Shown here in pieces: positions 5,035-12,808 of a stretch of DNA of 64,000 nt. A model generated the notes under the pieces. It was not told the origin of the DNA, ran no database searches, and was given only the letters and a program-made list of their open reading frames with translations. Source of the DNA: a virus (taxonomy: Duplodnaviria; Caudoviricetes); IMG/VR virus record IMGVR_UViG_2551306162_000001, positions 30,473 through 94,472 of that record, one strand, 5' to 3'. Numbering within the stretch: position 1 is the first letter of the stretch; each line of letters begins with the position of its first letter. A program made the translations under genes and the position numbers.

Positions 5035-5220
5035 ATGTATTCGCCGCGAGGTCCTGTTACCGCTGCCGCAGGTTCCGCGAATTCTCCCGGTCGCTACTCG
5101 GGAGCCGTATTGCGCGGTCCCCGCAGCCTCGCCGTCCGGCGAGTAATCTGCGGGGCCACTTCCGACCACATCCGCGAACGGGTCGGCTACAGATTCAACG
5201 ATACGGCCGCGGTCAAACCG
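5035..5220 (-). ncRNA. candidate structured ncRNA (~185 nt)
   Basis: At least 5 nested helices, no credible ORF, abuts tRNA-Met 5' end. Confidence 0.55.
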
Positions 5221-5742: not shown

Positions 5743-5743
5743 G

Positions 5744-5817
5744 TGCCCCCCGAGAGATTCGAACTCCCAACATCCTGATCCTAAGTCAGGCGCCTCTGCC
5801 AGTTGGGCCAGAGGGGC
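5744..5817 (-). tRNA. tRNA-Leu(UAG), short variable loop
   Basis: CCTGA-CTTAGGA-TCAGG, GTTCGAATC, A73. Confidence 0.88.
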
Positions 5818-5904
5818 GGGCCCGGCCGAGTTTCGCTTCATTGAGAGGCGTAGCCGGGGTGCTACTACCCGGAGAAGCGTGTACACGTTCCGAGGTTCGC
5901 TTTG

Positions 5905-5976
5905 CCAGGACGGGGAGAATCGAACTCCCGACACGCGGGTTTGGAATCCGCTGCTCTGCCACTGAGCTACATCCCA
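5905..5976 (-). tRNA. tRNA-Trp(CCA)
   Basis: Loop TTCCAAA, G73. Confidence 0.88.
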
Positions 5977-6340
5977 ATGTGACGGACGCTGGCTGTTTCT
6001 AGTACTGCGCCAGTCGTTTACAGGCACCCATCCGTCCAGGGGCCGCCCGTCGTCGTCACCGCGGCGGGGAGTGCGTGCCCCTGTTGCCCCGGCGACTCCC
6101 TGTCGCCGGACCGCGAAGTTAGTGGGTGGGGAGTTTCCTAGGCTCCGACCGGGGCATGGACCGTAAGGCATGTAGTCCCCGGTGCTGCGACTTGCCCGCT
6201 GAGGCATCGGTTTCCGGCCGCTAAGCCTTCCCTCAGGCACTTGCCCGTCGGGTTGCCGACATCGCACACATTCGCGGCCCGGTCACGCATTAGCCGCTCA
6301 CTCTGTCACCACCAGCGTCGGCCGCTAAACCGACGCTTTG
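5977..6340 (-). ncRNA. candidate large ornate ncRNA (~360 nt)
   Basis: More than 10 helices incl. long-range pairings; fills the whole gap between two tRNAs. Confidence 0.65.
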
Positions 6341-6413
6341 TGCCCCCCGCGCGATTCGAACGCGCATCTACGGCTGTTTGAAGGCCGCGCCTCTGCCGTT
6401 GGGCCAGAAGGGC
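6341..6413 (-). tRNA. tRNA-Leu(CAA), short variable loop
   Basis: Body paralogous to Leu(UAG); loop TTCAAAC with C31-A39 mismatch. Confidence 0.8.
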
Positions 6414-6417
6414 AAAT

Positions 6418-6494
6418 GTCCCCGCGCCCTGGAATTGAACCAGGTCCCTGACGCATCTTTCAGCGACCGCTCTACCGGTGAGCTAGCCGGGGAC
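6418..6494 (-). tRNA. atypical tRNA-like RNA (8-nt loop UGAAAGAU, extended bulged acceptor)
   Basis: Canonical D arm GCTC-ACCGGTA-GAGC and T arm CCTGG-TTCAATT-CCAGG; aberrant anticodon arm. Confidence 0.6.
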
Positions 6495-6632
6495 TATTCA
6501 GTTTTTGCCATGAGGGCTGTCGCCTGGTCGGGTCGCCGACTGGATTTTGAGACAGCTCACGCAGGGATAAAGATATCGGGCAGAATCCGAGAAACCGACG
6601 CACCAGATAACGATTCGGTAACGATGAATTCC

Positions 6633-6669
6633 ACGCCAACTATAGTTGCGCTACGCCAACTTTAGTTGC
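6633..6669. promoter_or_regulatory. tandem palindromic boxes upstream of tRNA operon
   Basis: ACGCCAACTATAGTTGC and ACGCCAACTTTAGTTGC, 20 bp apart. Confidence 0.5.
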
Positions 6670-6693
6670 CGCCACCCCCGACGCCGAGGCTGG

Positions 6694-10072: not shown

Positions 10073-11015
10073 GGTCAGGCACCCCCAGCCGCATCAGCGG
10101 GACGCCAAGTCGGTACCAGAGGCGGCACACGGAAAGTCTGTCGTCGAATGCGCCCAGCACGTGAAAGCGATTCCGGATGTGCTCGTCAAACAAGCCGCTT
10201 TTCACCAGGTAGTCCGGCCGTTTGTCGCCCGCGGCGCGCATGTGCAGCTCGGTGAACATGACGCCGTGGTTGAGCAGCCAGTCGGCGGTCTCGGTCATGC
10301 AGTCGGAGTCGCGGCCGGACAGCACGATGATCGCGGAGTCGGCGGCCAGCTTCTGCACGACCTCGATGGTGTGCGCGATCGGCAGGTCGTCCTTGACCCG
10401 GCTGTAGTCGTAGATGTCGCGGTCCGGGTGCTTCTGCGCGAGCGTCCCGTCGACATCCACGATCCACGCAGGCGGCAGCGACGGGTCGGGCTCGTAGGGC
10501 ACCGGGTAGAAGTACAGGTCCGGGGACGGTTCGACCGGCGCCCACATCTTGCGCGGGAAGCGTTTGGCCAGCGCGCGGATCGCGTCCTCCCCCACCGTCC
10601 GGCCGCCATCCGCGCCGCGGGCGGCGTCACGGCGGACACATTCGTCTACGGGGGTTTCGAGGTCGATCACCTCGACGTCCGCGCCGTGCAGGGCGGCGAA
10701 GTTGGCCCAGCCGCGTGTCCACTGGGCGCGCAGGTTCATGGCGTCGACGAACACGTCGTAGCCGCCGTCGAGCAGGGCCGCTGCTTGGGCGCGTTCGGCT
10801 TTCGAGATGATCTCTTCCTGCGCGTGCGTGAGTCGGCCCTCCGCGGCGAACAGGGTGGCGCGCAGGTCGTCCCGCGACACCCGAGCCAGGTTGGGGTTGT
10901 CCGCGTGCATCCGCCGGAACAGGCTCGACTTCCCCGCCCCCGGCCAGCCGCGGGGAATGATCACCCGCGGGCTGGCCGGGACCGGGATCACGTCGACCAG
11001 ATCGGTGGCGGTCAT
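10059..11015 (-). CDS. polynucleotide kinase / 3'-phosphatase (T4 PseT-like)
   Basis: P-loop GWPGAGKS, SRDDLR, C-terminal HAD VDVDGTLA...SGR...FDDR. Confidence 0.9.
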   Translation of the reverse strand: MTATDLVDVIPVPASPRVIIPRGWPGAGKSSLFRRMHADNPNLARVSRDDLRATLFAAEGRLTHAQEEIISKAERAQAAALLDGGYDVFVDAMNLRAQWTRGWANFAALHGADVEVIDLETPVDECVRRDAARGADGGRTVGEDAIRALAKRFPRKMWAPVEPSPDLYFYPVPYEPDPSLPPAWIVDVDGTLAQKHPDRDIYDYSRVKDDLPIAHTIEVVQKLAADSAIIVLSGRDSDCMTETADWLLNHGVMFTELHMRAAGDKRPDYLVKSGLFDEHIRNRFHVLGAFDDRLSVCRLWYRLGVPLMRLGVPDHDDF

Positions 11016-11587
11016 GCTGCGACCCCACCTTCGGCCTCCAGGTCGACGGTGTTCTCGTCGTCGAGGGCTTTCGTCTCGTGCTGGAGGAAGATCGGCGACT
11101 TGGCCTTCAGTGTGGTCGGGTGCAGGGTGTCGACGGTGCGGATGCACACGCCTTCGTCGACGAGCTTCTTCGACCCCGACAGCGGGACCGCCTGGCCGTA
11201 GCCCTCGTCGTAGTAGCGGCGGTCGATCCAGTCGGCGGGGTCGAAATCCTTGTGCGCCAACTCCGTCAACACCGGCACCGTCTTCAGGCCGAGGTTCGCG
11301 CACCACTCGACGAGCTGGCCCCACGCGAGGTCGGTGATCAGGCCCTGCGGGTTGACGTGCGCGACACGGTACACGTACAGGTCAGCCTCGCCCTGGGGGA
11401 CGTTGTAGGTGTAGCCGGACTGGATCGGTTCGCCCTCGGGCGTCCAGCCGATGAGTTCGCCATAAACGACGAACCCCTCGGGAATCAGACCGTCGAGGCG
11501 ACGCCCGTAGTGCGTCCAGACGTCGCCGTTGAAATCGGCTGCCGTATCAGTCTTTCCAGTTGCCCGCGCCAGCAGCTTCTTCAGCAT
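11012..11587 (-). CDS. RNA ligase, C-terminal half of split gene
   Basis: Motifs III (VVYGELIG), IV (DEGVCI), V (LKAK); own RBS GGAGG-N7-ATG. Confidence 0.85.
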   Translation of the reverse strand: MLKKLLARATGKTDTAADFNGDVWTHYGRRLDGLIPEGFVVYGELIGWTPEGEPIQSGYTYNVPQGEADLYVYRVAHVNPQGLITDLAWGQLVEWCANLGLKTVPVLTELAHKDFDPADWIDRRYYDEGYGQAVPLSGSKKLVDEGVCIRTVDTLHPTTLKAKSPIFLQHETKALDDENTVDLEAEGGVAA

Positions 11588-12029
11588 GCTTCTTCCTCCG
11601 GTGATAGTCCTGCGAGTAGGTGTTTTCCGCGTCCTTGCACGGTTGGCAGCGGCAGGAGTAGAGGCCGTACATCGCGCGGGTGCCGTGCTGGACCCGCCCC
11701 TTTTCCTGTCGCCGTGGAGGTCGGGTCTCGTTGTGGGCCAACATCTCGCCGATACGGTTCGACCTTCGTGTACCCATGTACGGGAGAATCGCTGTCACGA
11801 CGTTGAGCACCTCGCGACGGTTTCCGATTCGCCACGTGTATGCCTGCTTGCGCCCCTCACGGAGTGCCTCTGCGCGGACCGAGCCGTAGCCGACAACGTC
11901 GCAGAGGCGCTGGATGACATCTCGATCAGTCATCGTGCAGTTGACAGCAAGCCCACCGTTGCCCTTGATGAGGAAGCAGCCTTCCCCTTCAAGCAGTCCA
12001 GCGACCCAAGCGGTTTCTTCCGGGGTCAA
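11547..12029 (-). CDS. single-motif LAGLIDADG homing endonuclease with C-terminal Zn motif
   Basis: AWVAGLLEGEGCF; HGT..Y..CRC..C; TTG start overlapping ligase-N stop (TTGA). Confidence 0.88.
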   Translation of the reverse strand: MTPEETAWVAGLLEGEGCFLIKGNGGLAVNCTMTDRDVIQRLCDVVGYGSVRAEALREGRKQAYTWRIGNRREVLNVVTAILPYMGTRRSNRIGEMLAHNETRPPRRQEKGRVQHGTRAMYGLYSCRCQPCKDAENTYSQDYHRRKKHAEEAAGAGNWKD

Positions 12030-12808
12030 CGGTCCACCTTCGAACCATAGAAGTGGTTCTGCTCCGCCTTCGGGTCCTTGATGACCCTTCGGCTGCCGTA
12101 CACGGTGTCGTAGATGTACTCGGCGACCGGCACCTTCAGCCAATGGGCGGCGAGCTTGTCACGCCAGGTCGGCTTCCGCTTCGCGATGGTGTTGCCGATC
12201 CGGATGCTCGTGCCGTGCAGCTTCTGGGTGATCACCACCCGCGCCTCCGGGTCGATCAGGTGTTCGTTGCCCCAGTAGCGGGTGGTGTCGTAGTGCTCGG
12301 GCAGGAACTTCGCGTCGACCCGCACGAACTTCTTGGTCGCCTTGGCCTGCGCCGACACCCGGCCGCTGCCCTTCACGGGCCGCTCGTACTTGCGGCAGAT
12401 CTCGTGGTCGTCGAGGGCGTCGAAGGTGTCGCCTGGTCGCAGCTTCGTCACGTCGTACCCGGTGTAGGCCAGCGACTCGAGCGGCATGAACAGGGCGTCG
12501 CTGCGGTGGCCGCGGAGCTTGATCGCTCGGACGCGGCGGTTGCGCTCCAGGTAGCCCTTCTCGGCCTGGTCAGCGTTCAGGCTGGGCTCGCGGTGCAGGT
12601 TGTTGGCCCGCGCGTACTCCTCCGACAGCTGCGTCTCGGCCGTGAACACGACGCCGAGATCACCGGCGGCGCGGGTCTTGTCGACGATCGCCTGGTAGCC
12701 CAGCAGCGGCGCGCCGGCGATGTTGTCGCAGCCGGCCAGCTCGTTCACCGCGGGCAGCTGGACGACCACGGCCGCGTAGTTCGCGTTCTTGGGTGTGGTG
12801 AGTGCCAT
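12026..12808 (-). CDS. RNA ligase (DRB0094-like), N-terminal half of split gene
   Basis: OB-fold N-term (RVRAIKLRGHRS), motif I TQKLHGTS, GSRR. Confidence 0.85.
   Translation of the reverse strand: MALTTPKNANYAAVVVQLPAVNELAGCDNIAGAPLLGYQAIVDKTRAAGDLGVVFTAETQLSEEYARANNLHREPSLNADQAEKGYLERNRRVRAIKLRGHRSDALFMPLESLAYTGYDVTKLRPGDTFDALDDHEICRKYERPVKGSGRVSAQAKATKKFVRVDAKFLPEHYDTTRYWGNEHLIDPEARVVITQKLHGTSIRIGNTIAKRKPTWRDKLAAHWLKVPVAEYIYDTVYGSRRVIKDPKAEQNHFYGSKVDR

Follow-up and report, generated by a model that had tools for sequence, protein, structure and literature searches.

Two tRNA genes of a phage tRNA operon enclose about 360 nucleotides, and the locus poses the question of whether this interval makes an RNA in its own right and, if it does, an RNA of which kind. 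The interval occupies positions 5977 to 6340 of the window, i.e., of the whole 64,000-nucleotide stretch of DNA analysed here, which is included in the Nocardia contig C146. A sequence-only reading had described it as an ornate non-coding RNA exactly bracketed by two tRNAs, the processing of which would release it. The bracketing is as exact as described (Table 1), and all genes near the RNA lie on the minus strand; as the flanking tRNAs share this orientation, the RNA corresponds to the reverse complement of the window text. ARAGORN calls eight tRNAs in the window, on the minus strand only.

The gene content around the RNA is phage-like and syntenic across related loci: it includes a LysB-type cutinase, an HNH/NUMOD4 endonuclease, a MazG protein and a polynucleotide kinase-phosphatase (PNKP), together with an RNA ligase domain, an RlaP nucleotidyltransferase and a calcineurin-like phosphoesterase. 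The RNA ligase is represented by two ORFs in the window; the ligase domain is on 11012-11587, and the second ORF (12026-12808) has only a sub-threshold OB-fold match (21.5 bits vs. a cut-off of 27). Immediately upstream of the RNA, the tRNA-like gene carries a CAA anticodon, measures 73-74 nt, lacks a long variable arm and reaches 42.3 bits with the Rfam tRNA model, its D and anticodon stems containing mismatches. Both tRNA-Leu genes of the window (tag, at 5743-5817, and caa) are 74-75 nt long and devoid of the long variable arm of bacterial tRNA-Leu; tRNA-Leu(tag) of the Nocardia ignorata relative has 83 nt. Between tRNA-Leu(tag) and tRNA-Trp, positions 5821-5857 (minus strand) give a sub-threshold match to the abiF RNA motif (30.4 bits vs. 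a cut-off of 37, E 0.0066).

At the 5′ end of the operon, a −10-like motif, TGAATAGT, stands a few bases before the first tRNA-like unit; among 18 loci, 14 have the same or a similar A/T-rich motif before their first unit, in variants such as TGAATA, TTCATA or CAATAA, and in the locus L059 it is found 13 nt before the RNA itself. Since a scan for consensus promoters gave no hits, the promoter role of TGAATAGT-type motifs is one that we infer. The first unit after TGAATAGT, at 6417-6490 (minus strand), is shaped like a tRNA, with acceptor, D and T arms and a non-standard anticodon arm, and is called by neither ARAGORN nor Rfam; its 3′ 26 nt are identical to the locus L036, and comparable odd units precede the RNA in L002, L031 and L052. 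Further upstream, in the interval that separates the tRNA operon from the genes before it, ACGCCAACT(A/T)TAGTTGC occurs twice in tandem at 6630-6680, each copy with the palindrome CAACTATAGTTG or a near copy of it, in an arrangement that resembles operator sites.

The extent of the RNA was set by its relatives. Among 401 genomes of the family, a search at the DNA level returned two real relatives, both of which match the query over positions 137-364 only, equivalent to 6113-6340 of the window, so that the unit of about 360 nt originally proposed shrinks to a conserved core of 228 nt, the remaining 136 nt being absent from relatives. The core begins with CAAAGCG, one base past the discriminator of the tRNA or tRNA-like gene that precedes it, and CUCCCCACC concludes its paired part, leaving a tail of ~12 nt; the covariance model R1 aligns with the core over positions 1-228 at 276.5 bits. 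The spacer that separates the core from tRNA-Trp has no counterpart in any of the relatives’ loci compared, and the helices suggested within 5977-6112, including 6089-96/6102-09 and the CAGGGGC and GACGGA stems, thus fall in sequence that is not conserved. Folding energies, expressed against shuffles, amount to z = −2.6 for the spacer, to −1.05 (tRNA strand) and −2.10 (opposite strand) for the whole stretch, and to +0.14 for the 228-nt core alone; in DNA of 64% G+C they are uninformative, as core and stretch fold no better than shuffled sequence, and the reality of each helix was therefore judged by comparison with the relatives. Another inter-tRNA stretch of the window, at 5035-5220 (minus strand) and 5′ of tRNA-Met, shares 95% identity over 66 nt with the L002 stretch between core and tRNA-Met and has a 23-nt module in common with L003, L053 and L102; in the window, an insertion comprising tRNA-Trp, tRNA-Leu(tag) and a 92-aa ORF seems to separate this module from the core.

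Table 1. Features of the RNA locus, in window coordinates; the percentages refer to paired cells of the alignment.
Feature	Position	Strand	Remarks
-10-like motif TGAATAGT	6493..6500	minus	a few bases 5′ of the operon’s first tRNA-like unit
tRNA-Leu(caa), 5′ neighbour of core	6340-6413 (6341..6413)	minus	ARAGORN; 3′ end abuts core
Conserved core RNA, 228 nt	6113..6340	minus	similarity of relatives spans exactly this range
P0, 5′-terminal hairpin, 9 bp, UAGC-containing loop	6314..6337	minus	double changes at 9/9 pairs; 95.4% paired
P1 5′ strand, GGUGG	6309..6313	minus	partner CCACC at 6125-6129; closes the multi-branch core
Junction UGACAGAGUG	6299..6308	minus	same in all aligned relatives but one
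P2 hairpin, GCGGCU/GGCCGC	6274..6297	minus	double changes at 5/6 pairs; 99% paired
Junction AAUGUG	6267..6272	minus	invariant across all relatives
P3-P4 domain	6187..6265	minus	P3 GCGAU/GUCGC, P4 GUCGG/CCGAU
P5 hairpin, ACCGGG/CCCGGU, inner GCC/GGU stem	6148..6183	minus	outer double changes at 5/6 pairs
P6 hairpin, 4-6 bp, 7-nt loop CURGNMA	6125..6146	minus	continuous with P1 3′ strand CCACC
Spacer, three hairpins	5977..6112 (136 nt)	minus	between core and tRNA-Trp; not conserved
tRNA-Trp, 3′ neighbour	5904-5976	minus	ARAGORN and Rfam

The sequence-only reading had proposed checking the RNA with a covariance model made from homologs; R1 was built from the relatives, and covariation was found. 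The fold supported by this comparison consists of a 5′ hairpin (P0) and a multi-branch core closed by the GGUGG/CCACC helix (P1). In a diverse alignment of 17 sequences, 94.8% of cells are paired and compensatory changes occur at 45 of the 63 pairs, by which the structured non-coding RNA is genuine; none of 500 shuffles equalled this result, and sliding the partners by 1-3 columns left 37-46% of cells paired. Aligned to the model, 19 sequences give 96.4% of cells paired and compensatory changes at 30 of the 63 pairs. Plain MAFFT followed by RNAalifold on 8 sequences yields 63 pairs, 10 of which show compensatory changes, and the same model-free combination applied to 15 sequences recovers P2, P3, P4, the small hairpins, P5 and P6, with 20 compensatory pairs. 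Many of the conserved pairs are G-U, which would be A-C on the opposite strand, and the RNA strand is thus the tRNA strand; the 1-nt indels that separate near-identical (98%) copies exclude a protein-coding function.

Within this fold, P1 is paired in 98.8% of cells and shows one double change, from G-C to A-U, in L117. The junction UGACAGAGUG departs from its common form in L037/L051 only, where GAGGG replaces GAGUG, and for the UGU of the second junction, AAUGUG, pairing with ACA in the 5′ junction is predicted, through pairs that never vary. P3 carries double changes at 5 of 5 pairs, with 100% of cells paired, and P4 at 4 of 5 pairs; the region that they enclose forms four small hairpins, of which two are capped by YAGC tetraloops. 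The inner stem of P5 is weak, with 67.6% of cells paired. P6 retains its loop while its stem covaries (GGAG/CUCC to GGG/CCC, ACG/CGU or AGG/CCU), and this stem-loop stacks on P1 without a gap, at its 3′ strand. Inspection by eye for a kissing interaction of the P0 loop with the P6 loop revealed no clear covariation.

The complementary segments listed in the sequence-only reading all exist, at the coordinates given there or within a base or two (CAGGGGC/GCCCCTG at 6037-43/6077-83, GACGGA/TCCGTC at 5981-86/6031-36 and GTGAC/GTCAC at 5979-83/6305-09), as do the internal repeats TTAGCGGCCG and CGGGCAAGT, each present twice, but only some of the helices survive comparison. The hairpin 6314-21/6330-37 is P0, and it covaries together with TGCGA/TCGCA and ACCGGGG/CCCCGGT; CTGAGG/CCTCAG is present in the sequence but ambiguous across relatives, with 85-96% of cells paired. 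The long-range helix 6108-17/6271-80 (10 bp with one mismatch), the local GTCGG/CCGAC hairpin and the TTAGC/GCTAA pseudoknot all lack compensatory changes, with 75-84% of cells paired in each case; GUCGG covaries instead with a CCGAU located 45 nt downstream. Closure by GTGAC/GTCAC likewise gives way to GGUGG/CCACC.

Could this fold belong to an RNA already described? Rfam 15, searched at the gathering thresholds and at E ≤ 10 with the window, four relatives and the phage Bromden, returned tRNAs and, in the core, only a weak terC match (16.5 bits, E 3.5). The GOLLD model (RF01998) has no hit at E ≤ 10 in the window, L002, L003, L032, L037 or L124, and the ROOL model (RF03087) no match at the same threshold in the window, the relatives or Bromden. 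ROOL is an RNA of ~580 nt with several pseudoknots, described mainly from Firmicutes and rumen samples. Like the RNA studied here, GOLLD and ROOL are encoded by phages or prophages, in or beside tRNA islands, and to this extent the likeness to them drawn in the sequence-only reading stands; the RNA is, however, a quarter to a third of their size and finds no match with either model. In GOLLD, of ~800 nt, a conserved 3′ domain is combined with a variable 5′ domain, whereas the conserved unit here is 228 nt long, its variable part lies 3′ of the core, and its conserved junction strands sit near both ends. The GOLLD linker can carry tRNAs (PMC12286853); a tRNA is thus sometimes embedded in GOLLD, as it is in this RNA in L055. 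GOLLD has also been reported from Mycobacterium tRNA arrays (Morgado et al. 2020, as cited in PMC12286853), and ROOL is described as a phage or prophage RNA near tRNA islands with no known protein partner (PMC12286853).

The other known RNAs of comparable setting fare no better. No tmRNA is found in the window by ARAGORN or Rfam, and the 1-nt indels between close copies exclude a tag reading frame. Rfam models of bacterial and archaeal RNase P RNA have no hit on the window or the relatives; a CR-V-like stretch, ACAGAGUGAGCGGCUA, is kept in the relatives only as far as ACAGAGUG. The core has no hit to the Y RNA/YrlA model (RF02553), the sole YrlA signal (20.5 bits, sub-threshold) being off the core, on the upstream tRNA-like pair of L002. 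With YrlA, the RNA has in common a non-coding part combined with a tRNA-like module and a link to RNA-repair genes; in YrlA, however, the tRNA-like part is internal and the Ro-binding stem closes the molecule, whereas the tRNA-like unit of the present locus stands apart, as a 5′ neighbour. The window holds no Ro/TROVE gene, the only one of the genome being on contig C270. The Rfam 6S models gave no hit, and 6S and Ms1 adopt a rod-like fold with a central bubble, unlike the multi-branched fold supported by covariation here. The core is called as a tRNA by neither ARAGORN nor RF00005; its resemblance to a tRNA cloverleaf would reside in the order of its arms only. That the RNA is a very divergent GOLLD, ROOL, tmRNA, RNase P RNA or Y RNA missed by the models is, in our estimation, most improbable: the phage and tRNA-island context shared with GOLLD and ROOL and the adjoining tRNA-like module, comparable to that of the Y RNA-like YrlA, would fit, but none of these models hits at E ≤ 10 on the window or several relatives, the RNA is much smaller than GOLLD or ROOL and has no tag reading frame, and the only TROVE/Ro gene is on another contig.

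By description only, the RNA also recalls species 1 and 2 (rnaC, rnaD) of phage T4, small stable RNAs of unknown function that are encoded in the phage tRNA cluster and released by tRNA-processing enzymes; these are shorter and belong to a coliphage. MALAT1/mascRNA offers a eukaryotic parallel, in which fusion to a tRNA-like unit lets RNase P or RNase Z set one end of a longer non-coding RNA; there, the tRNA-like unit lies 3′ of the long RNA, whereas here it lies 5′ and processing is predicted. Literature searches turned up no description of this RNA. The possibility of a new class, raised from the sequence, agrees with the lack of any match from the GOLLD, ROOL, tmRNA, RNase P, 6S and Y RNA models, and the minus-strand core is a member of a previously uncatalogued family of phage RNAs.

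Relatives were found through pattern scans and with R1. The RNA is present in 11 of 151 Nocardia species genomes, in the form of prophages, and as these copies come from related prophages the counts are not independent. A further member resides in a prophage of another genus of the same family, integrated at tRNA-Met; searches of 150 genomes of the order, and of the family outside Nocardia, gave a single weak member beyond the Nocardia copies (G055). Other members are on IMG/VR and metagenome contigs of soil and viral origin; the IMG/VR contigs L032, L037 and L038 have ids that point to isolate genomes, L032 being the N. ignorata contig of L036. The copy of N. farcinica NCTC11134 sits in an unannotated stretch of a record that is almost without annotation. 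Neither the stretch nor the Nocardia-type core finds a blastn match among 50,697 phage records.

A shorter subtype keeps P0, P1, the junction strands, P2 and P6 and replaces the middle (P3-P4) domain by a different one. It scores 22-31 bits with R1, the copies of Mycobacterium phages, which were first picked up via a scan with an 18-base motif, reaching 22-23 bits only. Its carriers are the prophage of the other genus and the cultured Mycobacterium phages Bromden and DyoEdafos, to which Chaser is added by blastn only. In Bromden, a cultured cluster L-type phage, the 290-nt gap between tRNA-Pro and tRNA-Trp (NC_053510.1, 65392-65681; L127:3501-3790) holds the short subtype, and the inter-tRNA gap with the RNA is unannotated in both Bromden and DyoEdafos. 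Most of the Bromden stretch is matched by DyoEdafos and Chaser, and its 5′ third only by Aegeus and Baudelaire. The family is thus carried by phages and prophages of Nocardia, a related genus and Mycobacterium.

The position of the RNA relative to tRNAs is as regular as its fold. A tRNA or tRNA-like gene ends 0-4 nt 5′ of the core in nearly all loci; the exceptions are L059, without any tRNA, and L110, without an upstream ARAGORN call. In L093, which also lacks such a call, a tRNA-like T-arm and acceptor strand can be read by eye 5′ of the core. The upstream unit of Nocardia copies is often odd, with a Leu, Ser or Tyr anticodon without the long variable arm or with a non-standard anticodon arm; distant members stand behind ordinary tRNAs (tRNA-Asn in L111 and L115, tRNA-Arg in L117, tRNA-Pro in Bromden and DyoEdafos). 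On the 3′ side, tRNA-Trp or tRNA-Met frequently comes next, and L067 and L111 have a tRNA on each side, the 3′ one a few bases after CCACC. In L055, from one Nocardia genome, a tRNA-Met(cat) is predicted within the last peripheral hairpin of the P3-P4 domain (L055:1640-1725), which suggests that the RNA tolerates a break; if this tRNA is excised, the RNA is left as two pieces.

Such an intimate association with tRNA genes would also be expected of a cis-acting element of the operon, a spacer that orders cleavage by RNases E, P and Z or shields the precursor and has no function after release. The RNA lies within tRNA arrays and abuts a tRNA, and other inter-tRNA spacers of these phages are hairpin-rich too and partly shared. 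The long-range helices and the invariant or nearly invariant junctions are, however, kept even though the flanking tRNAs differ completely; the RNA of L059 stands alone behind a promoter-like motif, without a tRNA, and in L038 and L054 an ORF rather than a tRNA follows it. We thus hold a purely cis-acting role to be unlikely. The ORFs themselves invite the comparison with a riboswitch or a protein-binding leader controlling a downstream gene, since L038, L054, L059 and L093 have an ORF with a ribosome-binding site ~20-130 nt downstream; such control is extremely unlikely, as those proteins are mutually unrelated, tRNAs come next in most loci and no terminator or sequestering hairpin is conserved. 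A ribozyme, self-cleaving at the tRNA junction or acting on tRNAs, is very unlikely as well: the near-invariant UGACAGAGUG and the invariant AAUGUG occupy a multi-helix junction, as in catalytic cores, and the 5′ end of the RNA coincides exactly with the 3′ end of a tRNA, but no Rfam ribozyme model matches, hammerhead-like and RNase P-like motifs noticed by eye are not conserved among relatives, and RNase Z accounts for the junction without RNA catalysis.

The reading preferred here, to which a probability of about 0.6 is given, is that of an uncatalogued family of ~210-260-nt RNAs of Mycobacteriales phages and prophages that would be made from tRNA operons, released by tRNA-processing enzymes and, most likely, active in trans. 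The RNA would be an early part of the phage tRNA operon transcript, close to its 5′ end. A cut by RNase Z past the discriminator of the preceding tRNA or tRNA-like unit would generate the 5′ end of the RNA, while its 3′ end would come from RNase P cutting where the next tRNA starts, or from another nuclease; the placement of the RNA in an operon where cuts at the flanking tRNAs would free it thus agrees with the sequence-only reading. In this manner, tRNA-processing enzymes of the host may turn part of the operon transcript into a discrete, stable RNA. Its genomic context suggests that this RNA most likely acts in trans, possibly as a folded binding surface (a decoy, a sponge or a cofactor) in the contest between phage and host over tRNAs and translation. 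RNA-repair genes lie beside Nocardia-type copies in several loci; as they are absent beside the copy of N. farcinica NCTC11134 and the distant members, an obligatory link to PNKP, RNA ligase and RlaP is rejected as a general rule.

A more specific and rather doubtful version would see in the RNA an oversized mimic of the tRNA shape, made by the phage from its tRNA operon, that traps or redirects a tRNA-recognising host enzyme (an anticodon nuclease, a toxin or a processing enzyme being candidates) or presents a substrate to the phage repair enzymes. Compared with a class II tRNA, the order of the arms is P1 (5 bp), a 2-nt UG linker, P2, P3-P4, P5 at the place of the variable arm and P6, the last with a 5-bp stem and a 7-nt loop and continuous with the 3′ strand of P1.

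A view of phage tRNA islands as tools of counter-defence is gaining ground, and GOLLD and ROOL are large RNAs of such islands whose function is unknown. The present RNA combines a strongly supported fold with a constant junction to a tRNA; its natural variants include a copy with a tRNA within a hairpin, a stand-alone copy without a tRNA and the short subtype, and since members occur in cultured M. smegmatis phages (Bromden, DyoEdafos, Chaser), deletion, probing and pull-down are feasible now. Beside GOLLD and ROOL, this is a third family of tRNA-island RNAs, much smaller than these, unrelated to them and found in a different group of hosts, the Mycobacteriales.
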